IMG/VR virus record: IMGVR_UViG_3300005573_000058
Coordinates: 74,662 to 138,661 of that record
Length of the DNA: 64,000 nucleotides
Reading direction: 5' to 3' (one strand)
Origin: a virus
Shown: piece after piece, positions 104 to 36,176 of the stretch
Layout: every line of letters starts with the position of its first letter
Position numbering within the stretch: position 1 is the stretch's first letter
Position numbers and translations under genes: made by a program
The notes under the pieces: model-generated
Database searches by the model: none
Seen by the model: the letters and a program-made list of their open reading frames with translations, nothing else
What the model was told of the DNA's origin: nothing

Positions 104-322
104 GTGGAGAAAATTTACAGGAGAGCTGTAAAGAAATGGATAAATCTCTTTACAGATCCGAATCTTGATATGACTTCAGACGAGGATTTTATAATCTTCT
201 TAAAGATGCTAGTTGACTGTCTGAAACCATACAGCAAATATGTTGGCGAGCGAAAAGATCGCCAATACATTAAAAAGATCTTGACGAAGATAATAGAAGA
301 ATACTACGAAGAAAATAAATAA
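104..322 (+). CDS. hypothetical protein
   Basis: AAGGAGG RBS before GTG 104; the frame is also open back to the window start; followed by a hairpin at 321-344. Confidence 0.7.
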   Translation: MEKIYRRAVKKWINLFTDPNLDMTSDEDFIIFLKMLVDCLKPYSKYVGERKDRQYIKKILTKIIEEYYEENK

Positions 323-344
323 GAAGCCCCTTTCGGGGCTTCTT
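321..344 (+). terminator. intrinsic terminator-like hairpin
   Basis: aagaagcccc-tttc-ggggcttctt immediately after the stop codon. Confidence 0.65.
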
Positions 345-349
345 ATTCC

Positions 350-477
350 GCCCCCCGCCACAGCCTACTCACAGTAGCCGGCGGGGGGCTGTTCATATTA
401 CAGATGTAACAGAAGTATGAACAGAAGTACCATCATTGTTCATACTCCTGTTGCATCAATAAAAGGTCTTCAAAAAA
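350..477 (+). repeat. structured intergenic cassette, unit 1
   Basis: GC stem gccccccgcc/ggcggggggc with a 20-nt loop containing TCACAGTAGC; long hairpin 403-457; ggtcttcaaaaaa tail. Confidence 0.85.
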
Positions 478-535
478 GATAAGAACAAGAAAGGTTCCAC
501 TCCTTCTGTTCTTATCTGTAAAATAGGAGGCATAT

Positions 536-691
536 ATGAAAAATAAAGACTAAAAAAGAAAAGAAAAACTTGAAAGAATAAAAGAACTAAGAAGATACAA
601 TGGCAAAATACCTGCTGAGAAGATTTTCATAAAAAGAAGTACCAAGCATGACAATGACTGGAAATATGAAACATATGAAACTGATGAATAA
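536..691 (+). pseudogene. small basic protein with a premature TAA at codon 6; paralog of 8955..9170
   Basis: GGAGG RBS and ATG; reads MKNKD*KRKEKLERIKEL...KIPAEKIFIKRSTKHDNDWKY, compared with RIPSVKIMHRSKRHENDWKY in 8955..9170; terminator follows. Confidence 0.7.
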
Positions 692-717
692 AAAGAAACC
701 TTTATGGTTTCTTTTTT
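691..717 (+). terminator. intrinsic terminator
   Basis: aaaagaaacc-tttat-ggtttctttttt. Confidence 0.7.
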
Positions 718-725
718 ACTGCAGC

Positions 726-924
726 AGCCCCCCGCCTCAGCCTACTCACAGTAGCCGGCGGGGGGCTTGTTCTTATTACAGATGTAACAGGTGTATAGAC
801 AGAAGATCTTATATCATCTGTTTATACACCTGTTATATCTGTTGATGGGTTTTTAAAAAATAATAAAGAGCAGTTGCATGGTGCAACTGCTCTAAACTGC
901 AGCTATATGCTGCAAGAAAGGAGG
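726..924 (+). repeat. structured intergenic cassette, unit 2
   Basis: GC stem-loop 726-767 with TCACAGTAGC loop; long hairpin 778-842; ggtttttaaaaaa 848-860; hairpins 867-893 and 898-914; RBS. Confidence 0.9.
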
Positions 925-929
925 ATGTT

Positions 930-1394
930 ATGATAGTATTCATAGGAAAAAGCTACAAATTAGATAACGGAGACTTACTGATATCATCGTATGGCAAGTA
1001 TGAGCCAGACATGCTGATACTAGTTCCAAAAAACCATGTGCAAATTTCAAAGATAGTCGACGAAGAAAGATACTACGTTGACATAGAAGTAAAAGAAAAC
1101 GAAAATATAAAATTTAGTGCGAACTGTGTAAAGATCGTCCCAGGAACATTTGGAAAGACGAAAAAAGGAGCTGATATTTTTAAGATTGATATAAATGGTC
1201 CTCATCTACTTATAGAAGTCCAATGGGGCGGAAGCTTCAGGACGACCGATGGCAGGTTAGAATCTCCCATAGACGAAACGAAGATAATAAAGAAGATCAG
1301 GAAAAGTTCGCATGGAGGTGGATTAGGAAATACGTATTATATATTCGACAGGAAGTACTATGAGAGTTATACACCAAATATAGATGATTTTTGA
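930..1394 (+). CDS. hypothetical protein
   Basis: 154-aa ORF with AAGGAGG RBS. Confidence 0.85.
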   Translation: MIVFIGKSYKLDNGDLLISSYGKYEPDMLILVPKNHVQISKIVDEERYYVDIEVKENENIKFSANCVKIVPGTFGKTKKGADIFKIDINGPHLLIEVQWGGSFRTTDGRLESPIDETKIIKKIRKSSHGGGLGNTYYIFDRKYYESYTPNIDDF

Positions 1395-1401
1395 TATATC
1401 C

Positions 1402-1532
1402 ACCCCGCCGCATCAGCCATTCATAGTAGCAGGCGGCGGGGTTTGCTCTTTAAAAGTGCAACAGATGTATATATAGAAGATCTTATATCTGTTTATACAT
1501 CTGTTGCATTTGTTGATCGGTTTTTTAAAAAA
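1402..1532 (+). repeat. structured intergenic cassette, unit 3
   Basis: stem accccgccgc/gcggcggggt with TCATAGTAGC loop; long hairpin 1454-1511; ggttttttaaaaaa. Confidence 0.9.
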
Positions 1533-1549
1533 TAAAAAAGGAGGTATAT

Positions 1550-1723
1550 ATGAAACATGTTACAAAAGTTGTATTGTTTGTAGCTTTTGGTGCAATTGTT
1601 GTAGCCTTGTTCTGCAGCAAATGGTTATTGAAAGGCCTTGTATGGACTAACAGAAAGTTAAATCAATTGATAAATAAAAACAAGGCCTACACCAAAAGTT
1701 ATAAAAATAATAATCAGCCTTAG
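1550..1723 (+). CDS. small membrane protein (57 aa, absent from the ORF track)
   Basis: AAGGAGG RBS; MKHVTKVVLFVAFGAIVVALFCSKWLLKGLVW... has a hydrophobic N-terminus. Confidence 0.75.
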   Translation: MKHVTKVVLFVAFGAIVVALFCSKWLLKGLVWTNRKLNQLINKNKAYTKSYKNNNQP

Positions 1724-1730
1724 CAACAAC

Positions 1731-1899
1731 GCCCGCCGCCATAGAGTTTCACAGTAGCAGGCGGCGGGCTGTTACTGAGCATTAAAAAGGCTGATTGCTA
1801 CAGTTATGTAGCTGTTTGTGTATCGGTTTTTAAAAAATAAAGAGCAGTAACATGGTGTTACTGCTCTAAACCTGCAGCTATATGCTGCAAAAAAGGAGG
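1731..1899 (+). repeat. structured intergenic cassette, unit 4
   Basis: stem gcccgccgcc/ggcggcgggc with TCACAGTAGC loop; ggtttttaaaaaa; hairpins 1841-1867 and 1873-1889 shared with unit 2. Confidence 0.85.
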
Positions 1900-1903
1900 T
1901 TGT

Positions 1904-2335
1904 ATGAATTTTAATTTTAATTTTAACAAGTTATTTAAGAAATTTACTGGATCGAAAGCTACAAGAATAAAATTCGATCCAGAGAAAGTTGTTGTTTCTG
2001 TAAATGAAGTTAATGCAGATAAGAAGACTGTTGCTACAATAATAGAGGTAGCAACTGAAACGTACAAGCAATTTCCAGCAAAGGATGTTGTAACAAAGAA
2101 AACCGGTGATCTATATATATCCAGCCAGAATCCAAAAGGAAAAAGCTCATATGCTGATCTTGTTAGCAGAAATGTAATAGGTGCATATAGATTAGGATGG
2201 ATATATGCGAAAGATGGTAAAAATATAATCTGGAAGGCAAAGTACTTCCTTCGCGCAAATCGGAAGGAAGGTAATTTCCAACTCGAGATCTATCAACCGA
2301 ATTCTATGATAAAAGGTATCGACGACAGGAAGTGA
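1904..2335 (+). CDS. hypothetical protein
   Basis: 143-aa ORF with AAGGAGG RBS. Confidence 0.85.
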   Translation: MNFNFNFNKLFKKFTGSKATRIKFDPEKVVVSVNEVNADKKTVATIIEVATETYKQFPAKDVVTKKTGDLYISSQNPKGKSSYADLVSRNVIGAYRLGWIYAKDGKNIIWKAKYFLRANRKEGNFQLEIYQPNSMIKGIDDRK

Positions 2336-2339
2336 GCAT

Positions 2340-2372
2340 AAGAGCCCCACAGTAGTGGGGCTCTCTTTTTTT
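2340..2372 (+). terminator. intrinsic terminator
   Basis: agagccccac-agta-gtggggctct followed by a U-tract. Confidence 0.8.
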
Positions 2373-2417
2373 AGAACAGAAGAATAAAAGAACAGAAAAA
2401 CAGAAATAGAACAGAAG

Positions 2418-2527
2418 TGAAACCCCACAAAAGCAGTTAAAATTGAACATTTTTCAACTTCTTTCACCACTCATCCCCACTTAACTGCTCTATTTTTAAC
2501 TTTTTCTACTGCTTTTGTGGGGTTTCA
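2418..2527. repeat. 20-bp perfect inverted repeat enclosing a 70-nt pyrimidine-rich spacer
   Basis: tgaaaccccacaaaagcagt (2418-2437) and actgcttttgtggggtttca (2508-2527). Confidence 0.9.
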
Positions 2528-2552
2528 AAAAATCAAAAAATTAAAAAATTAT

Positions 2553-2627
2553 GGCCTCGTCGTCTAAATGGTTTAGGACTCCAGCTTTTCAAGCTGGAAA
2601 TGGTGGGTTCAAGTCCCCCCGAGGCTA
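2553..2627 (+). tRNA. trnE: tRNA-Glu(TTC), CCA not encoded
   Basis: acceptor ggcctcg/cgaggct; D-arm gtcgtctaaatggtttaggac; anticodon stem ccagc-ttTTCaa-gctgg; T-loop ggttcaagtcc. Confidence 0.93.
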
Positions 2628-2649
2628 TAATAAAAGAAAAGGAGGTAAT

Positions 2650-2841
2650 ATGTTAATAGAAAAAAAGAAGTTTTTTATATATTTGACAAAAAATCAAATA
2701 GGAGCCGGCACAAACAACGGCTCCATAAGCATGCACTGGTATAGAAAATGGATAGGAATAAGAACATATAAAGGCATAGATACAGAGGAAATAAATTTAG
2801 GTTATATATGGATAGTTATAGCAAAAATAAAGGAGGAATAG
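2650..2841 (+). CDS. hypothetical protein (true start 2650; the track start overlaps the tRNA)
   Basis: GGAGGT RBS before ATG 2650. Confidence 0.75.
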   Translation: MLIEKKKFFIYLTKNQIGAGTNNGSISMHWYRKWIGIRTYKGIDTEEINLGYIWIVIAKIKEE

Positions 2842-5215: not shown

Positions 5216-5368
5216 TATTTTAGCTGTAACTATGATAAAAGATAGCAAATGTCCGTTGTAACAGTAGTAAGAGCGGCTTGTGGCAGTTGTAAGAGCAGCT
5301 TATAGCTACTGTATGTAGCTGTAACTATTATAAAAGCAGTTTACAACAGCAGCACGAGCAGCCAGTTG

Positions 5369-5564
5369 TTGCTCATATAACTGCTACAAGGAGAAATTGT
5401 TCTAATAACTGTTACAAAGAGATATTGTTCATATAACTGTTACAAAGAGATACTGTTCTTATAACTGCTGTATAGATACATTGCTCTTATAATTGCTACA
5501 AAGAGATATTGCTCTAATAACTGCTACAAAGAAATACTGTTCATATAACTGCTGTATAGATATC
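5369..5564. repeat. 28-bp tandem repeat x7 (iteron-like)
   Basis: near-identical to ttgttcatataactgttacaaagagata, with units at 5369, 5397, 5425, 5453, 5481, 5509 and 5537. Confidence 0.95.
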
Positions 5565-10774: not shown

Positions 10775-12862
10775 ATGAAAAATAAAAAGCAAGTTTTAAA
10801 AGCTGCCCCGATAAAATTGGTAAAGGGGCAGAGATTTGTAATGCTTAGACATATAGTAGTTAAGAAAGATGGTACATTTGAAATAACAGATGGTAAGTAT
10901 GTTAACATCGATGTAGGACAGAATAAATTAGCATTGAATATGTGGAGATATATGGCTAAATTTGTTGATGAAAAAGGTAAGAATATTGTACCATCAAAAG
11001 ATGTATTAAAAAAGTTAGAAGATCAATATGAAATTACATATATTCATACTGGTCATAGAGGAACTGAGGCTAGAGTATTGTTAAAGAAGTTCAACAAAGT
11101 TGAAAGATATCTGAAAGGATTACCTGTTGAAAAGAAAATAGCAAGAAGAAAGCTGTTTTTAAGAAGAAAGATAGACGACTTCAGATCATATGGTATAGAT
11201 AAAATAAGAATAATAAATGTTCCAAAAGAGTATGAAAAATATGTAGATGGTGTAATATTCTATAAAGGCAAAGAGATTATGAAAGGTGATAAGAACAGAA
11301 GAAACTTAGAAGGAGCAGAAGTGAAAGGATTTGCAAAAGGATCATTGATGAATGTTAATAAGTCAAAGTTCTTTAAGAAGTTAATAGGAGATGTACAAGA
11401 AGATGAATTAGTTATACCATCTTGTAACGTTAAAATGAGGAAAGATTTAAAATATACAATAGATGATATATGGATAGCTGAATATGCAAAGACAAGAGCT
11501 GTTGTTAAAGATGAATTAGAATATGGTATAGCAGCGATGATAAAAAATGTAAAACCTATTGATGTACCTGAATGGACATTAGAAAGGATATATGAACTTG
11601 TAAAGTTGACTGATAATGATAACATGGCAAGTGCATTGTTAAAGGCAGGTGTACCATTGAATGATCAGTATTTTGTTCAATCAGCAGAACCTATTATATC
11701 TGCTGAGATAAGTAGAATATTTAGAATCGGATATGGATTAACAGGATTTGCTGTTGCTCTGCCAAAGGCAGGTAAGGTTGATGAAATTGTCGTTGGTAAA
11801 AGAATTGCAAAGTGGTTGAATATAAAGAAAGGAGGAACTGTTGTTCTTACAAGAAATCCAATTCCAGGTATATTAGGACTACTGAGAGTAAAAGTTAAAA
11901 AGATTGTAGATAAAGATGTTATTTATGTTCATCCAGATATATGGACAGGTGTATTGAAAGGAGACTATGATGGTGATCTGTGTCAGTTGATTGTTGATTA
12001 TCCAGAGCTTAAAGAACATGCATTTGAGCCAGCTCATGCTCTAAAGCTAGTTGAAAAAGCAAATAAGATGATAGAGAAAGAAGATAGTACAGAAGAAAAT
12101 CTGCAGCAAACAGAACTTGATGTATATCATGCTATTGTATCAAATGCAGCTGCTGTAGGTATATTGACGATGGAATGGTTAGAAAGGATGAATGAATATC
12201 ATAAGATGTCAAAAGATAAAAGAGCTGTTCAAATGTATGTTGATTTTGAAGACATTCAAAAGAGTATAGATGGAATGAAACATGATGCATATAAGAATGC
12301 TGTTAAGCTTGCTGATAGAATTAAGAATATTATGAGAACGAGACAAGTAAATAGCTATTTAAGAGCTATAAGGAATGTTAATATATCTTATGAGAATAGA
12401 ATAGAAGTTATAAGAAGTGCAAATTATACATCAGATGATATTTATGAAAAGATTGTATGTAGAAGAAGAAATGCTATAAAGGGATTAGATAGTATTGGTA
12501 GTCAAACAGTTGAATATGATTATAGAAGTGCAGCAAAGAAGATGTTAAAAGAGGTTAATATCGACTCTGAAAGATTACAGAAAGCAAGACAGATGGTGAT
12601 TAAGTTTCATAGTAAAAATGGATATTCGGAAATGGCTACTATTGAGTTAGCTAAGAAGTTGTACAAAACGCTGAAGCTTAAAAAGAATATAGTAGCATTG
12701 CTAGAAGCAAGTACATATCCAAGAGGAGTTGGAAGAGCAGCAATGTTGAGTCTGCCAACTGCAAAAAAGATAGTGAAACTAGCAATTCAAGATATGAACG
12801 ATGTTAAAGAAATAATAGAACAAGATATAAAAGAAGTTAAGAAGATAATAAATCAGCCATGA
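10775..12862 (+). CDS. single-subunit double-psi-beta-barrel RNA polymerase (YonO / QDE-1 RdRP-like)
   Basis: YVDG, KGFAKG, LTRNP, catalytic GDYDGD, VGILT and SIDGMK occur in the order expected for YonO/RdRP-type enzymes. Confidence 0.8.
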   Translation: MKNKKQVLKAAPIKLVKGQRFVMLRHIVVKKDGTFEITDGKYVNIDVGQNKLALNMWRYMAKFVDEKGKNIVPSKDVLKKLEDQYEITYIHTGHRGTEARVLLKKFNKVERYLKGLPVEKKIARRKLFLRRKIDDFRSYGIDKIRIINVPKEYEKYVDGVIFYKGKEIMKGDKNRRNLEGAEVKGFAKGSLMNVNKSKFFKKLIGDVQEDELVIPSCNVKMRKDLKYTIDDIWIAEYAKTRAVVKDELEYGIAAMIKNVKPIDVPEWTLERIYELVKLTDNDNMASALLKAGVPLNDQYFVQSAEPIISAEISRIFRIGYGLTGFAVALPKAGKVDEIVVGKRIAKWLNIKKGGTVVLTRNPIPGILGLLRVKVKKIVDKDVIYVHPDIWTGVLKGDYDGDLCQLIVDYPELKEHAFEPAHALKLVEKANKMIEKEDSTEENLQQTELDVYHAIVSNAAAVGILTMEWLERMNEYHKMSKDKRAVQMYVDFEDIQKSIDGMKHDAYKNAVKLADRIKNIMRTRQVNSYLRAIRNVNISYENRIEVIRSANYTSDDIYEKIVCRRRNAIKGLDSIGSQTVEYDYRSAAKKMLKEVNIDSERLQKARQMVIKFHSKNGYSEMATIELAKKLYKTLKLKKNIVALLEASTYPRGVGRAAMLSLPTAKKIVKLAIQDMNDVKEIIEQDIKEVKKIINQP

Positions 12863-12932: not shown

Positions 12933-13169
12933 TCAATGGAAATTGATAAGCTATATGATGCCAAATTAAGCATTAACTACATTTACATTCCGTTAATGCT
13001 TTCACTGGCATCATATATGCAGAAGTGAATAACTTCTGAAAAAAAATTTTTAAATTGAGATACAAGATTCAATGGAAATTGAAAGTTATCGAAACAGTTT
13101 ATTTTATTCCGCACATTTCATGTGCTTGTAAAATAAACTGTTTCAGAAGTGAACAGCTTCTGAAAAAAA
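12933..13169 (+). ncRNA. two tandem structured RNA-like units (136-nt period)
   Basis: conserved tcaatggaaattga(t)aag, then an unrelated long hairpin, then conserved cagaagtgaaYaRcttctgaaaaaaa. Confidence 0.5.
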
Positions 13170-31622: not shown

Positions 31623-31730
31623 TATATTACTAAACAAGGGAGGTAATTATGGTTGAAAAATTAGTAGTAAAAAAAGATGTTGGTTATAATTGGTTACGGT
31701 ATTGCAATCTTACTTATAAGGAGTTACTTA

Positions 31731-34700
31731 ATGGATAGAATGGTAAAAAAACGTAATGGTCATATAGTTCAATTTGAAAGATCTAAAATTTTTACAACTA
31801 TTAAAAACGCATTTGCAAGTATAAATCATCCTATATCAGATGATAAAATAGATGAAATTGTAAATAATATTGAAATTGAATTACATAAAAGATTTTTTAA
31901 AAAAGGTAGTATACCATCAGTTGAAGAAATACAAGATATAGTAGAACATATATTAATGAAAAAGAACTATACTGATGTTGCAAAGTCTTATATTTTATAT
32001 AGACAACAACGAAAGGAGAATAGAGAATTAAAGAACTTATTTAAAGGAGTTGAAAATATTGTAGATGATTATATATCAGAAAGTGATTGGAAAGTTAAAG
32101 AAAATGCAAATATAATATTCTCAGTTCAAGGACTTAATAATTATATATCGTCTGCTATAGCATCTAAGTATTGGTTGAACAAAATATATCCTGAAGAAAT
32201 AAAAGAAGCTCATGAAAATGGTGATATATATATTCATGATCTTGGAACTATCGGATCATATACGTTCTTTGGAAAAGAAGTAGTAATAGCCAAGTTAAAT
32301 GGAGATATTAAACTCCTTTCTCTTGAGGATCTTTATGAAGAAATTCCAGAGCCTGAAATTCTTCTAAATGAAAAAGATGAAGCTTTTGCAAAATATCCGA
32401 AAGAGTTTTTTGTTTTGGATAGAAACGAATGGACGAAAGTTTTGAGAATGGTAAGAAAGAGAAAAGATAGAGAAATGAGATTTATTAAATCAGAGCAGGG
32501 TCAAGGTGTAATTGTTACTGATAATCATCCTTTTATTGTTAAAGAAAAACCTGATGCATTAGAAAGAGAAATTGAGGCAAAAGGAGTTCAAGTAAAAAAT
32601 CATTTAATTTTGAGTTGTCATATTCCTTCTCTTTTAGTTAGTGAAAAATTATTTTTCAAAAAACATATTTACTTAGCAGAAGAGCTTTTAAAAAGAAATT
32701 ATGAAAACTTTTTTCTCGAAGGGTTCTATTGGAAAGATTTTATGGAAAATTGGGGAGGATCTTTAAGAGTTGAAGGAACTTTCAGCACTTCAAATAGCGC
32801 TAATAGCTTAGACAATAAATTAGAACTTACTGAAGATCTTGGATATTTAGTTGGATTTTTTATAGCTGAAGGTAATTACGATAGCTGGAAATTAAATATT
32901 ACTAATAGTGAAGAAGAGATAATTGAAAAAATTCAAAGAATCTGTGCCCGCTTAGGAATAAGAACTTATGTGAGAGAAAAGGAAGGTAAAACAAAGACTA
33001 TTTCAATTAATTCGAGTACTTTAAAGATTGTTTTTGAAAAAATTTTTCAAATAAAACCATTAAGTAAAAATAAAAATTTACCTTACGATATTTTAACTTA
33101 TAATTCCGATTTTATAAAAGGGTTGATTGCAGGAATTATTGATGGGGATGGAAGTATTAGTGGAGAAACTCAAATTATAATTCGAGTAGCTTCTAGAACG
33201 ATGCTTGAGCAGATTGCAATTTTACTCCAATTTTTGGGAATTGTTCCTCGAACTGGAGTTTCCATCAAAGATATAGGAAAGAAAAGAAATTTTAGGGGAA
33301 AAGAAATTGTTCAAAATTATCCTCTTTATAGGCTTACTTTTTCTAAAAAAGAAAACGTGGATTTTCCATCTTTGAAATATCAAAAAGCAAAACCTGCTAA
33401 AACACATTGGAGATCAGAAAATTACGGATGGAATAGAGTATTAAATAACGAAGCTACAACTATTCCTGACAAGTTTATTTACGACATTACTACTGAATCT
33501 AATACATTTTTATGTAATTCCATTTTAGTTCACAATTGTACAGGATGGGATCTTGAAGATTTACTAAGAAAAGGATTTGGAGGAGTTCAAGGTAAAATAT
33601 CATCTGCTCCTCCTAAGCATTTTAGAACTGCTCTAGGTCAGTTAGTAAATTTTTTATTTTCTGTTCAGATGGAAGTAGCAGGAGCTGTTGCTGTATCTAA
33701 TTTTAATACATTGTTAGCTCCTTTTATAAAATATGATAAGTTAGATAGAGTTCAAGTGAAACAAGCATTACAAGAATTTGTATATAATATGAATGTATCT
33801 ACTAGATCAGGTGGACAATCTCCTTTTTCTAATGTCACATTAGATCTTGAAATACCTGAACATTTTAAAGGTAAAAAAGTTATTATAGCTGGTAAGGAAC
33901 AAGATGCTACATATGATGAATTTGAAAATGAAATGAACTTATTTATTGATGTTTTTACAGAGGTTTTAACTGAAGGTGATTACAATAAAAGAATATTTAC
34001 TTTTCCTATACCTACTATAGCAATAACAAAAACTCTTAACTGGAATAATCCAGCATATGAAAATATATGGAAAGCAACAGCTAAATATGGTTATTTTTAT
34101 TTTGCTAATTATGTAAATTCAGATATGAAACCAGAAGATATACGTTCGATGTGTTTTACAGCTGATACTCGATTAATTTATAAGGAGGGAAAGCACAGTC
34201 GATATCAAAGGACAACAATTAGAAATTTGGTAAATAATTGGAATCCAAAAAAGGAATTTTATCTTCTAATAAATGGGAAGTGGGTAAAAATTATCGATGC
34301 ATTCAAATTAAAAAATAATTCAGGGAAGATTATCAAAGTTGAGTTAAGGAATGGAGAAATAATTAAAATGACACCTGACCATCCAGCAATGATAATTGAA
34401 AATGGAAAATTGAAACAAGTTTTAGCAAAAAATTTAAAAGTGGGAGATTTTATTCCAATAGCCAAAAATACTTATGAGGGTAGATTGGGAGATTTTGAAC
34501 TGGGAAGGTGGTTAGGTTTATATGTTTCCGAAGGAGGGATTAATAAAAATGAGATCTATTTTTCCTTTAATAAAAATGAAAAGGAATTACAAGAATTTGT
34601 AAAAAAAGTAGCCGAAGAGAGATTTGCTTTTCCAGTAAGAGTTACGAAAGATCCAAGGTGGGATACAATTCAGGTTTGGGTAAAAAGTAAATCGGCAGTT

Positions 34701-36176
34701 GAATGGGTAAGAAAATTCTGTTCTGGAGAAAAAGCTCCACGAAAAAGATTGTTAGCCTCTTTATATGGAATGTCAAAAGATTTTAGATTAGGAGTTTTAG
34801 TAGGAATATACCAAGGTGACGGCTATGAAAGGGATGTAGAATTTCATACCACAAATAGGAAATTGAGAGATGATGTCGCAGATTTGGCTAGAAGCATAGG
34901 AATTAACTACACGAAAAGAATTAACCCGAATAACACTAAAGGTGAAAAAAATTACACTTCTTATGTATTAAGACTTTGCCGAGATAGCCTAAAAGAGTTA
35001 GCGCCTTATTTTAAAAATATAAAAATATCAAATTCTTCAATTTTCAGAGATTTTGGTGATTTTTATGGAATAAAAATTAAATCAATTAAAGTTCAAAATT
35101 ACTATGCTTCTGTTTATGATTTCGAAGTAGACTCAAAAGAGCATCTTTTTCAACTATCTAATGGGGTTATTACCCATAATTGTTGTAGATTATCATTGAA
35201 TATGAAAGAGTTACGTAAGAGGACTGGAGGAGTTTTTGGAGCAGGAAATTTAAGTGGAAGTTGCGGGATTGTTACAATTAATTTACCAAGATTAGGCTAT
35301 GTTTCAAAAGATGAGAATGAATTTTTCTCCAGATTGGATCATTTACTTGAACTAGCTAAAACATCATTAGAAATAAAAAGAAAAACTGTTGAACAGCTAA
35401 CTGAAAAGAATTTTTATCCTTATTGTAAAGTTTATCTTGAACCTGTTAAACAAACAACTAATCGATATTGGTCTAATCATTTTTCAACTATAGGAATCAT
35501 AGGGTTAAATGAATGTTCTCTTAACTTTTTGGGCGTAGGTATTGAACAGAAAGAAGGTCATGATTTCGCCCAAAAAGTATTATTGCATATAAGAGAAAAA
35601 ATAGCACAATTTCAAGAAGAAACTGGAAATTTATACAATCTTGAGGCTGTTCCTGGTGAAGGTTCTTCTTATTCATTAGCTTTAAAGGATAAAAAACGCT
35701 TTCCAAGAATAAAAACACAAGGTACAGATACTGCTCCATATTATACGAATGGAACAGGACCTGCTCTTTCAACCAATCTAGACATATTTGATTATGTTAG
35801 AATTCAAGATGACTTGATATCATTATTGACAGGTGGAGGTGTTGTTCATCTATTTTTAGGTGAAAATATAAATGATTGGCAAATGGCAAAGGAATTAGTT
35901 AAAAAAGTTACATCAATGTTCAAAGTTCCATATTTAAGTATTACTCCTAGTTTCTCAATATGCCCAGTTCATGGTTATATACCAGGTGTTCACAAGTATT
36001 GTCCTTATCCACATACGGAGGAAGATATTAGTAAATATGGTATTGAAATAGAAGTTACAAAGAATGATTTATCTGGTATGCCTGGAGGTAGTTATGCTAT
36101 AATAAATAAAGATGAACAAAGTAATAAAGAACAGGAGAAAAAGATAGATTTGAAATTGTTTAAAAAGGAGGTATGA
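31731..36176 (+). CDS. nrdD: class III anaerobic ribonucleotide reductase with ATP cone and two inteins; lacks the C-terminal glycyl-radical loop
   Basis: VKKRNG ATP cone; HDL..Y|CxGW; SM|CCRL; PGEGSSY; YYTN; ends after CPVHG...CPYPH; AAGGAG RBS before ATG 31731. Confidence 0.93.
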   Translation: MDRMVKKRNGHIVQFERSKIFTTIKNAFASINHPISDDKIDEIVNNIEIELHKRFFKKGSIPSVEEIQDIVEHILMKKNYTDVAKSYILYRQQRKENRELKNLFKGVENIVDDYISESDWKVKENANIIFSVQGLNNYISSAIASKYWLNKIYPEEIKEAHENGDIYIHDLGTIGSYTFFGKEVVIAKLNGDIKLLSLEDLYEEIPEPEILLNEKDEAFAKYPKEFFVLDRNEWTKVLRMVRKRKDREMRFIKSEQGQGVIVTDNHPFIVKEKPDALEREIEAKGVQVKNHLILSCHIPSLLVSEKLFFKKHIYLAEELLKRNYENFFLEGFYWKDFMENWGGSLRVEGTFSTSNSANSLDNKLELTEDLGYLVGFFIAEGNYDSWKLNITNSEEEIIEKIQRICARLGIRTYVREKEGKTKTISINSSTLKIVFEKIFQIKPLSKNKNLPYDILTYNSDFIKGLIAGIIDGDGSISGETQIIIRVASRTMLEQIAILLQFLGIVPRTGVSIKDIGKKRNFRGKEIVQNYPLYRLTFSKKENVDFPSLKYQKAKPAKTHWRSENYGWNRVLNNEATTIPDKFIYDITTESNTFLCNSILVHNCTGWDLEDLLRKGFGGVQGKISSAPPKHFRTALGQLVNFLFSVQMEVAGAVAVSNFNTLLAPFIKYDKLDRVQVKQALQEFVYNMNVSTRSGGQSPFSNVTLDLEIPEHFKGKKVIIAGKEQDATYDEFENEMNLFIDVFTEVLTEGDYNKRIFTFPIPTIAITKTLNWNNPAYENIWKATAKYGYFYFANYVNSDMKPEDIRSMCFTADTRLIYKEGKHSRYQRTTIRNLVNNWNPKKEFYLLINGKWVKIIDAFKLKNNSGKIIKVELRNGEIIKMTPDHPAMIIENGKLKQVLAKNLKVGDFIPIAKNTYEGRLGDFELGRWLGLYVSEGGINKNEIYFSFNKNEKELQEFVKKVAEERFAFPVRVTKDPRWDTIQVWVKSKSAVEWVRKFCSGEKAPRKRLLASLYGMSKDFRLGVLVGIYQGDGYERDVEFHTTNRKLRDDVADLARSIGINYTKRINPNNTKGEKNYTSYVLRLCRDSLKELAPYFKNIKISNSSIFRDFGDFYGIKIKSIKVQNYYASVYDFEVDSKEHLFQLSNGVITHNCCRLSLNMKELRKRTGGVFGAGNLSGSCGIVTINLPRLGYVSKDENEFFSRLDHLLELAKTSLEIKRKTVEQLTEKNFYPYCKVYLEPVKQTTNRYWSNHFSTIGIIGLNECSLNFLGVGIEQKEGHDFAQKVLLHIREKIAQFQEETGNLYNLEAVPGEGSSYSLALKDKKRFPRIKTQGTDTAPYYTNGTGPALSTNLDIFDYVRIQDDLISLLTGGGVVHLFLGENINDWQMAKELVKKVTSMFKVPYLSITPSFSICPVHGYIPGVHKYCPYPHTEEDISKYGIEIEVTKNDLSGMPGGSYAIINKDEQSNKEQEKKIDLKLFKKEV
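32262..33536 (+). mobile_element. intein 1 in NrdD (425 aa) with LAGLIDADG endonuclease; starts with Thr
   Basis: TFFGKE...; block B VTDNHP; LGYLVGFFIAEG; IAGIIDGDG; YDITT...LVHN/C. Confidence 0.9.
34152..35180 (+). mobile_element. intein 2 in NrdD (343 aa) with LAGLIDADG endonuclease
   Basis: CFTADT; TPDHP; LGLYVSEG; VGIYQGDG; VYDFEV...ITHN/C. Confidence 0.93.

Follow-up and report, generated by a model that had tools for sequence, protein, structure and literature searches.

An array of covarying stem-loop cassettes ahead of small early genes in an uncultured hot-spring phage

The closest described counterparts of the locus reported here lie in the early regions of two kinds of phages. In T4-type phages, composite elements termed PeSLs join an early promoter to a G/C-tract stem-loop that acts as a terminator or attenuator, stand before ORFans and mediate their shuffling, according to the respective studies (Arbiol et al. 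2010, PMC2839356; Comeau et al. 2014, PMC4122927). For Thermus phage P23-45, the published report describes a pre-early region of 9 kb with small genes, including that of the non-virion RNA polymerase (nvRNAP), in which 14 transcription start sites share a strongly conserved AT-rich motif and 7 transcription termination sites share a conserved 26-nt motif; the virion RNA polymerase (vRNAP) reads the AT-rich pre-early promoters and the nvRNAP uses GC-rich ones (Chaban et al. 2024, PMC10770324). We analysed a stretch of 64,000 nt (the window; G000:C1:74662-138661) of the virus record IMGVR_UViG_3300005573_000058, which is linear, 138,661 bp long and has 28.7% G+C; it is about 80% complete. Near its beginning, the window carries repeated units that consist, in this order, of a G/C stem-loop (SL1), a linker, a long hairpin (HP2), a spacer, an AT-rich box (GGTTTTTAAAAAA), a leader hairpin of type A or type B or none, a Shine-Dalgarno (SD) site and a small open reading frame (ORF). 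On balance, we regard it as probable that these units are composite terminator/insulator-promoter-leader cassettes of an early ORFan region, which would make each small gene an expression unit of its own.

The likeness to PeSLs concerns the layout. In either case, composite intergenic cassettes are repeated in a plastic early region, each directly ahead of a small ORFan, and contain a G/C-tract stem-loop as well as a promoter, which is a candidate one in the present phage; the SD site and start codon lie at the cassette end. PeSL stem-loops are drawn with G-T pairs, and PeSLs supply homology for modular shuffling; in the present phage, mosaicism is seen within one genome. However, PeSLs carry sigma70 -35 and -10 boxes that are read by the host, whereas none were found here and the candidate promoter is the 13-nt box with its T5A6 sequence. 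The present unit is also much larger, with about 130 nt before the box, and differs by its two separate covarying hairpins, its conserved 20-nt loop and its two alternative leader hairpins. P23-45 is likewise a hot-spring phage with single-subunit two-barrel RNA polymerases (RNAPs) and a small-gene cluster adjoining the nvRNAP gene; it also has a virion RNAP, fused to the tape-measure protein, of which a counterpart in the present phage would be hypothetical. A conserved AT-rich motif before each gene and a conserved GC-rich hairpin past the previous gene are common to both, in two units of P23-45 (upstream of gp74 and gp75) a further hairpin directly precedes the AT-rich motif, and the gene order is similar, with small early genes, an AAA ATPase with a VWA/metallopeptidase gene, and replication genes. 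By our own reading of the P23-45 sequence (NC_009803), on which the assignment of both motifs rests instead of on the published motif logos, TATT(C/A)(C/T)TT stands at the end of 11 of its 18 intergenic stretches, next to the start codon, and a GC hairpin that contains TAGCC and has a T-run behind it is present in 10 of the 18. The motifs of the two phages nevertheless share neither sequence nor covariance-model similarity. The P23-45 motif abuts the start codon, mostly without an SD site, whereas structured leaders and strong SD sites are found here; its conserved hairpin has a T-run and SL1 has none; and the polymerases share the DYDGD region alone. PeSLs and P23-45 were the only analogues found in a literature search that covered some of the possible names and, for P23-45, the report without its supplements.

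Anatomy and conservation of the units

A preliminary description of the window had reported four copies of the stem-loop cassette. These four units (U1 to U4, beginning at window positions 350, 727, 1403 and 1731) are real: the motif TCAYAGTAGCMGGCGG, which covers loop and arm, has 4 matches in the window when up to 3 mismatches are allowed, all of them inside U1 to U4, as compared with a mean of 0.20 in shuffled sequences (0 of 100 shuffles reached 4). They are the last half of a larger array, the rest of which lies upstream of the window. The whole record contains eight full units, all on the + strand and spread over 4.6 kb, whose stem-loops start at genome positions 71799, 72192, 72949, 73574, 75011, 75388, 76064 and 76392. 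These are also the only eight places in the record with an exact 8-bp G/C inverted repeat that encloses a loop of 3-39 nt, and the orientation of the loops is identical. The search of the remaining genome with a covariance model, which the preliminary description had suggested, was carried out with a model built from the eight units (R1; 133 positions, 31 pairs). R1 recovers exactly these 8 units (E 6e-37 to 1.6e-17) and one weak variant besides (genome 71247-71363, E 8.6e-4). The sole further + strand match, near 62 kb, is at chance level (E 0.1), and the other weak matches are - strand readings of the same palindromic hairpins or comparable weak matches near 62 kb. The conserved module, which extends over about 130 nt before the box, heads eight small early genes, and the array opens the genome's long + strand block. 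The parts found in window 321-2628 are as follows (window coordinates; basis of each assignment in brackets).

321-347, + strand: intrinsic-terminator-like hairpin with T-rich tail, which ends the preceding ORF (2-322) (sequence reading; the terminator scan lists the hairpin only on the - strand, L135 11009-10978)
350-389, + strand: SL1 of U1, 10-bp G/C stem (350-359/380-389), 20-nt loop with TCACAGTAGCC (unit E 1.0e-33)
403-457, + strand: HP2 of U1, long AU-rich hairpin of about 21 bp (folding, covariation)
465-477, + strand: box of U1, GGTCTTCAAAAAA (motif search)
478-516, + strand: type B leader hairpin of U1 with the T-loop-like loop GGTTCCACTCC; SD site 525-530, ATG 536 (folding)
536-689, + strand: cargo of U1, a frame of 51 codons with an in-frame TAA at codon 6 (551-553) (ORF reading)
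693-716, + strand: weak terminator-like hairpin with T-run ahead of U2 (sequence reading; absent from the terminator scan, fewer than 3 G-C pairs)
727-766, + strand: SL1 of U2, 10-bp G/C stem (727-736/757-766), 20-nt loop (E 1.9e-34)
781-839, + strand: HP2 of U2, pairing extendable to 775-845 (folding)
848-860, + strand: box of U2, GGTTTTTAAAAAA (motif search)
867-914, + strand: type A leader of U2, with a 12-bp hairpin AGAGC..TGG..GCTCT (867-893), AAAC and hairpin 2 (898-914); SD site 919-924 (folding, covariation)
930-1394, + strand: cargo ORF of U2, 154 aa, without Pfam or PHROG match (profile searches)
1403-1441, + strand: SL1 of U3, 9-bp G/C stem (1403-1411/1433-1441), directly past a stop codon with no terminator ahead (E 3.3e-34)
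1456-1509, + strand: HP2 of U3 (folding)
1519-1532, + strand: box of U3, GGTTTTTTAAAAAA, leading straight into the SD site (1539-1544) without a leader hairpin (motif search)
1550-1723, + strand: cargo ORF of U3, 57 aa, hydrophobic (ORF reading)
1731-1769, + strand: SL1 of U4, 10-bp G/C stem (1731-1740/1760-1769), directly past a stop codon (E 1.6e-17)
1786-1824, + strand: second hairpin region of U4, weak (-10.9 kcal/mol at 37 C), without homology to HP2 (folding, identity)
1825-1837, + strand: box of U4, GGTTTTTAAAAAA (motif search)
1841-1889, + strand: type A leader of U4, hairpin 1 (1841-1867) and hairpin 2 (1873-1889); SD site 1894-1899 (folding, covariation)
1904-2335, + strand: cargo ORF of U4, 143 aa, paralogue (51% identity) of the ORF at genome 70822-71199 (sequence comparison)
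2341-2372, + strand: intrinsic terminator that closes the array, with the SL1 loop word CACAGTAG in its loop region (terminator scan)
2374-2532, + strand: variant unit before the tRNA, with four tandem (G/A)AACAGAA(G/A) words, a long-range 18-bp helix and the box GGGTTTCAAAAAA (2520-2532) (motif search, folding)
2552-2628, + strand: tRNA-Glu(UUC), starting 20 nt past the box (tRNA/Rfam match)

SL1 is a pure G/C stem of 9-10 bp with a loop of 19-22 nt that keeps YCAnAGYAGC in all eight copies. The stem arms read GCCCCCCGCC/GGCGGGGGGC in U1 and U2, CCCCGCCGC/GCGGCGGGG in U3, and GCCCGCCGCC/GGCGGCGGGC in U4. Two of nine pairs are flipped, one from C-G to G-C in 4/8 copies and the other from G-C to C-G in 1/8, and the compensatory C-G to G-C change and the constant loop word noticed earlier thus hold for the full set. 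Of the 19 GC-dense 16-nt islands in the record, 15 are SL1 arms; in a genome with so little G+C this marks SL1 as a dedicated signal and not as the usual terminator style of this phage. A hairpin with a T-run precedes SL1 at a distance of 1-19 nt in six of the eight units (in U1, SL1 begins 2 nt past the hairpin at 321-347), and in the other two, U3 and U4, SL1 lies directly past the stop codon. The terminator scan lists two of the six hairpins on the + strand and two only on the - strand; the remaining two are absent from it.

A linker of 12-16 nt, mostly (C)TTGTTCATAYTACAG, connects SL1 with HP2, an AU-rich and nearly perfect duplex of about 21 bp with a loop of 12-16 nt. HP2 is homologous in seven of the eight units. 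The second hairpin of U4 is only 33-41% identical to HP2, hence another, weak hairpin occupies this position. The spacer between HP2 and the box measures 6-10 nt and occurs in three sequence types, and the distances from SL1 to the box amount to 94, 115, 115, 115, 116, 116, 121 and 128 nt. Beside these parts, the word GAACAGAAG deserves mention. Four (G/A)AACAGAA(G/A) words stand in tandem upstream of the tRNA box (window 2374-2417, genome 77035-77078); GAACAGAAG is also found at the apex of the 5' arm of HP2 in 3 units and, on the - strand, as part of 3 type B hairpins. This word may be a site for some DNA- or RNA-binding protein.

The covariation proposed for the window copies is significant in the larger, 8-copy alignment. 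Here, 94.6% of 239 cells are paired, and 7 of the 31 pairs have changes on both sides. None of 500 column shuffles reached the percentage of paired cells, the counts of double changes (in pairs or in cells) or the covariation score; the sole measure that shuffles did reach (159/500) was the occurrence of further pair types. If the partner is slid by 1-3 columns, pairing falls to 33-48%. Folding of the HP2 regions gives 17 G-U pairs on the + strand vs 4 on the - strand; the G-U pairs of the + strand would be A-C mismatches on the opposite one. The + strand is more stable in 7/8 units, with totals of -221.6 vs -196.0 kcal/mol. This strand bias, together with the compensatory changes, argues that SL1 and HP2 act as RNA or as + strand single-stranded DNA (ssDNA), as the preliminary description had assumed. 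All hairpins except the second one of U4 are predicted to be folded at 65 C, a temperature of relevance because two hot-spring metagenome DNA runs, one of them possibly the source run, contain this stretch. The units differ from each other by 9-41% in SL1 and by 12-40% in HP2 (seven homologous copies) and still keep their pairing. They are thus old copies under structural constraint, and the simple recent duplication that had been named as the counter-explanation is refuted. In Rfam searches of the locus, the tRNA alone passes the gathering score, and at E up to 1 there are just sub-threshold matches to generic hairpins.

The box, the leaders and the cargo genes

The box is an AT-rich element of 13 nt whose T5A6 palindrome is flanked by hairpins. 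With at most one mismatch, GGTYTTYAAAAAA has 7 matches at 6 distinct sites in the window (465, 848, 1519/1520, 1825, 2520 and 7252), as opposed to a mean of 1.54 in shuffled sequences, none of which (0/100) reached 7. At the same stringency the whole record contains 12 + strand copies, all within genome 71348-81913 (10.6 kb) and all intergenic; each has a start codon, or in a single instance the tRNA, 31-115 nt downstream. A lone box at genome 74510 is located between two cistrons without a terminator, straight past the stop codon, and is accompanied by a leader hairpin only; box and leader therefore work as a module without SL1 and HP2. Sites resembling sigma70 promoters are as frequent across 7.1 kb of the array as in shuffled sequences (21 vs 22.4), and none coincides with the box or recurs at a constant position within the units. 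Among the elements, the box is the strongest candidate for a promoter because it is the sole element common to all 12 expression units, including that of the tRNA, because its distance to the leader hairpin is short and fairly constant, and because it is confined to the early region and has no sigma70-like hexamers with it.

The leader hairpins start 6-12 nt past the T/A junction of the box. Type A, present in 5 copies, is composed of a 12-bp hairpin (AGAGC-stem-(A)TGG-stem-GCTCT), AAAC and a second hairpin, and type B, also in 5 copies, is a long hairpin capped by GGTTCYAYTCC. The additional hairpins that the preliminary description had seen in U2 and U4 are type A leaders, and their structure is sustained by the five copies: among the 11 pairs of hairpin 1, double changes occur in 4 and no pair is broken. 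Translation starts follow the scheme AAGGAGG, 5-8 nt, start codon. A 5'-terminal hairpin followed by a strong SD site is a common design of stable early mRNAs.

Several other readings of these elements were considered and dropped. The box could resemble an archaeal TATA box, and its distance to the tRNA fits, but the SD site of U3 lies merely 7 nt past the box, and the intrinsic terminators point to a bacterial host. A sigma70 promoter made up of TTGCAT in the 3' arm of HP2 and TAAAAA in the box would have weak hexamers and a spacing that varies from 13 to 18 nt. A kissing interaction between the loops of SL1 and of type B leaders would use the complementarity of AGTAG and CUACU, which shows no covariation between units. 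As a separate observation, two units at window 12933-13169, between the polymerase paralogue described below and the next small gene, have a repeated structured leader of another kind. It consists of a TCAATGGAAATTGA hairpin, a long hairpin, CAGAAGTGAA(T/C)A(A/G)CTTCTG and an A-run.

Most cargo genes are orphans. Only 1 of the 11 array ORFs has a Pfam match above the cut-off, and none of the 4 scanned against PHROGs has a match. The exception is a STIV_B116-like protein (PF08960, 2.2e-19) encoded at genome 71421-71756 (L135:7421-7756 in the numbering of the locus, where L135:6421 corresponds to genome 70421); this family was first seen in archaeal viruses. The earlier statement that each unit leads a different and unrelated gene holds for the most part, with two qualifications. 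The cargo of U4 (genome 76565) has a paralogue upstream of the window, the ORF at genome 70822 (51% identity), which makes one paralogous pair, and the frame of U1 reads MKNKD*KRKEKLERIKEL... with the TAA at codon 6. This frame may be a pseudogene, or contain a sequencing error or a read-through site.

The modules that precede these genes have been reassorted. In SL1, the nearest neighbours are g71799 and g72192, g72949 and g73574, and U1 and U2 (91%), whereas the HP2 of U1 is nearest to that of g72192 (88%). The spacers of g71799 and g72949 are 100% identical, and for U2 and U3 the spacer identity is 89%. The distribution of leader types A and B is independent of the groupings seen in SL1, HP2 and the spacer, and the type A hairpins at 70757 and 73081 are identical although the parts upstream of them are unlike. 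Such a change of nearest neighbours from module to module is the signature of recombination between cassettes, and it agrees with the earlier description of the units as modular cassettes before small genes. Target-site duplications around SL1, expected if it were a mobile GC cluster, were not consistently found in the flanks. The first unit of the array (genome 70421-70824, L135:6421-6824) is of a different make. It is a very stable multi-hairpin region (-187.7 kcal/mol over 404 nt) with GGGGGCAGTAGCCC, which holds the SL1 loop word, followed by a type A leader, and it lacks a full box.

Possible functions of the units

If the units are expression cassettes of the kind proposed above, the box would be a promoter of a non-sigma70 type, read probably by one of the phage's own two-barrel RNAPs or else by the host polymerase with a phage factor. 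Transcription would start at or just past the A-run of the box, so that the mRNA would begin with a stable type A or B leader hairpin, followed by the strong SD site. SL1 and HP2, placed past the previous gene and ahead of the box, would fold in + strand read-through RNA and may act as a second terminator, an attenuator or an insulator, possibly also as a processing site, and tandem units would thereby be isolated from each other. The repeated modules would in addition provide the homology for recombination that reshuffles the cassettes. Since SL1 and HP2 are located downstream of the previous terminator and upstream of the box, their transcription would depend on read-through or on an unseen start further upstream.

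A number of observations weigh against this assignment of functions. SL1 has a large loop and lacks a U-tract, and is thus not a canonical terminator; furthermore, a canonical terminator is already present ahead of SL1 in six of the eight units, which makes a terminator role partly redundant. The hairpins of types A and B together with the T-run of the box score as intrinsic terminators on the - strand in 7 rows of the terminator scan (for example L135 9107-9081, 6783-6757, 11554-11528, 12528-12502 and 8347-8320), and judging from the sequence the units could also block antisense transcription. In 2 further rows, hairpin and box T-run are listed as a + strand terminator. No box precedes the polymerase operon, which begins at genome 65627. 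In the early regions of P23-45, R1 has no match, and the likeness to this phage is one of layout only. The searches described below retrieved no relative, and there is no RNA run among the runs that contain the stretch.

Instead of separate promoters, the units might contain processing sites. A phage polymerase that ignores intrinsic terminators would then make a long precursor, from which cuts would release monocistronic mRNAs starting at the leader hairpin, a scenario that we consider rather unlikely; the same holds for the two conceivable targets, HP2 with its duplex of about 21 bp for an RNase III-type enzyme or the single-stranded AU-rich box for one of the RNase E/Y type. The G-U bias of HP2 (17 vs 4; + strand more stable in 7/8) shows action in RNA, HP2 is a long and nearly perfect duplex, the box is single-stranded between stable hairpins, the box at genome 74510 separates two cistrons without a terminator, and another box precedes a tRNA, which needs processing anyway. 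In the early region of T7, RNase III sites lie between the early genes, which are served by one promoter cluster and one terminator. The present array resembles this arrangement by its conserved long hairpins that are located between consecutive early genes and act in RNA, but here most genes have a terminator-like hairpin and a candidate promoter of their own. Such hairpins with T-runs before six of eight units argue for separate transcripts, the box is kept as an exact 13-mer beyond the needs of an RNase E-type site, and processing leaves SL1 unexplained. A role of SL1 as a structure-specific promoter or terminator signal, a hairpin-plus-loop element of a kind not described for the two-barrel polymerase family, has a modest chance of being true. 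Its concrete form, in which a two-barrel polymerase recognizes SL1, with or without HP2, once the hairpin has formed in the nascent RNA or by extrusion of the + strand DNA, appears improbable to us, and equally so the two roles that SL1 could have there: that of a GC-rich promoter accompanying the AT-rich box as its tandem partner, and that of a terminator specific for the polymerase, comparable to the 26-nt termination motif of P23-45. In favour of such a signal, SL1 is unique to this region, its arms being 15 of the 19 GC-dense islands of the genome; covariation of the stem is combined with a loop that retains YCAnAGYAGC in 8/8 units; and the SL1 loop word CACAGTAG occurs again in the loop of the array-closing terminator. 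HP2 would be the 5' hairpin of an SL1-driven transcript, mirroring the leader hairpin past the box, and in a comparable region P23-45 uses promoters of two classes, AT-rich (vRNAP) and GC-rich (nvRNAP), together with a conserved terminator in the form of a GC hairpin. Against this role, all SL1 copies lie within 4.6 kb and none stands before the replication operons expected for an nvRNAP, the interval between SL1 and the box is anything from 94 to 128 nt, no T-run follows SL1, and the 20-nt loop makes extrusion from duplex DNA unlikely. The geometry of N4 promoters does not apply either. The vRNAP of N4, a T7-like polymerase, recognizes hairpins with 5-7-bp stems and 3-nt loops on the template strand. 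Although in both phages the early promoter signal for a phage polymerase would be a DNA hairpin whose stem and loop features are conserved, the stems here have 9-10 bp and about 21 bp, the loops 12-22 nt, the favoured strand is the non-template one and the polymerases are two-barrel enzymes, so that the N4-type promoter suggested in the preliminary description is not supported. In a bolder variant, the C-run/G-run of SL1 would seed R-loops that are trimmed by the RNase H fused to the neighbouring polymerase.

Two further proposals of the preliminary description, an integron-like array and non-coding RNAs (ncRNAs) that serve a reverse transcriptase (RT), are not supported either. A mobile gene-cassette array in which HP2 or SL1 folds in ssDNA as a recombination substrate, a very improbable explanation in our judgement, would fit the small and mostly orphan ORFs on the same strand that are separated by structured imperfect palindromes, as attC sites are, and also the reassortment of modules between units. 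Look-alike contig pieces from two hot-spring runs that break at the repeats are weak evidence in the same direction. Yet no tyrosine recombinase (PF00589) was matched in the 138.7-kb record, about 80% complete, while the control search matched 14/14 genomes, and neither Rfam nor attC-like matches were obtained. The attC core consensus is RYYYAAC ... GTTRRRY. The HP2 3' arms CTGTTGCAT, CTGTTGTAT and CTGTTATAT do not fit its GTTRRRY part, given that the letters after GTT are not all purines, and the R and L cores are absent. Moreover, attC sites have no counterpart to SL1, the additional pure G/C hairpin with its conserved loop. Each cassette also has its own SD site and box, a putative promoter, and homologous recombination between the repeats explains the mosaic without a dedicated enzyme. 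An array of small ncRNAs, retron-like or resembling the template of a diversity-generating retroelement (DGR), is hardly credible. In its favour are the structured covarying units and a polymerase-like ORF in the window with a faint RVT_1 signal and a weak PHROG 'polymerase' match. This signal is, however, the only one for RVT_1 and reaches 15.4 bits vs a cut-off of 29.6 (genome 94145-94435), about 17 kb from the array; the RT that had been assigned to window 19079 has only this sub-threshold match. In addition, no promoter belonging to the units precedes SL1, the units are in exact register with the genes downstream, and no retron, DGR or group II family was matched in Rfam.

Returning to the terminator/insulator-promoter-leader cassettes, what is unusual about them is their size, the two covarying upstream hairpins and the likely link to two-barrel phage polymerases. 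Cellular RNA polymerase has some of its smallest relatives in the single-subunit two-barrel RNAPs of phages (P23-45 gp64 and gp96, crAss-like gp66), and to our knowledge the promoter and terminator signals of these phage enzymes have been described for very few phages. With the array, a candidate start/stop module is available in eight natural copies that have diverged and in which compensatory changes mark the features under selection, and because the polymerase genes adjoin it, the signals of an uncultured thermophilic phage could be tested in vitro with its recombinant enzymes. The cassettes would also extend the idea of mobile regulatory cassettes, as embodied by PeSLs, beyond T4-type phages and sigma70 promoters, and the leader hairpins, predicted to be folded at 65 C, are possible expression parts for thermophiles. 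Should SL1 be a polymerase signal after all, the eight units would be a natural allelic series for how minimal polymerases read nucleic-acid structure. If, on the other hand, the cassettes are merely ordinary terminator/promoter repeats, they represent a well-documented and unsurprising feature of early regions.

Neighbouring polymerases, relatives and genome context

The array begins about 1 kb downstream of the operon with the gene for an 863-aa polymerase of the RNase H-RdRP type (genome 66805-69396). The protein matches PF05183 (Pfam RdRP, two-barrel) with 29.4 bits, above the cut-off, and has an N-terminal RNase H domain (match to PDB 2kq2, 3.7e-13); precomputed annotation assigns it to the same two families. 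Its homologues in a HMMER search are P0004 (1.3e-104), P0005 and P0008. A paralogue (E 4e-25) is encoded at window 10775-12862. The preliminary description had called it an RNAP; its kinship with the two-barrel polymerase bears this out in part, while its own PF05183 score is just 12.1 bits. Both polymerases align weakly to gp64 of P23-45, in the DYDGD region only (E 0.014 and 0.14). T7-like RNAPs (PF00940) gave no match in the record, with its completeness of about 80%, nor in the control genomes. The genes downstream of the array encode an AAA ATPase, a VWA/metallopeptidase protein, an anaerobic ribonucleotide reductase with an intein, DNA polymerase B and a primase-helicase. The reductase, NrdD (1499 aa, window 31677-36176), contains LAGLIDADG homing-endonuclease domains in its intein.

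Relatives of the locus were sought by sequence and by structure. A blastn search with window 300-2650 against 50,697 phage records gave no match, and tblastn with the DNA polymerase returned only 4 records, all of them T4-like cyanophages with 23% identity. Related loci were retrieved neither by means of the DNA polymerase or the 863-aa polymerase nor, from viral and genome contigs, by means of an alignment of 5 homologues of the polymerase, and protein homologue searches with the 143-aa ORF and with the polymerase found the query itself only. As for patterns, the GC stem had at least 119 single and non-specific matches in viral contigs, in GC-rich contigs and unscored by the covariance model. 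The HP2 pattern had 0 matches in viral contigs and 15 in stretches of metagenome contigs, all coding-like; R1 recognized none of these and gave one weak match elsewhere (E 0.021). The pattern of box plus type A leader had 0 matches, and that from SL1 to HP2 had 4 single matches in genome contigs of unrelated bacteria, none of which R1 recognized. The type B loop with an SD site gave 13 single matches, 12 of them coding-like. The remaining one, GGCAGG-TTCTACT-CCTGCC, is a possible T-loop-like hairpin shortly before an SD site and start codon in the unrelated viral record IMGVR_UViG_3300010938_000086 (51% GC; - strand near 12171-12213); this single case may be due to chance.

The assemblies of the hot-spring runs break at the repeats, and many of their pieces are 85-95% alike with unlike flanks. 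At the joints listed for these run contigs the short side comprises merely 20-25 letters, and we conclude nothing from them. Around the last box and the next small ORF (genome 81753-82386, L135:17753-18386), the summed contig depth in both runs is about ten times that of neighbouring bins (225.7 and 124.9 vs roughly 10-20), and this stretch may be common to many other contigs. Iteron-like arrays of direct repeats were noted at two places, with the word (T/A)ACAACTGTT(A/G)T at genome 61800-62400 and ATAACTG(T/C)TAC at window 5340-5560 (genome 80000-80220). A link of the former to the units was considered and rejected, as ACAACTGTT words recur in the HP2 3' arm of just 2/8 units. G-rich runs adjoin the repeat array at 61.8-62.4 kb.

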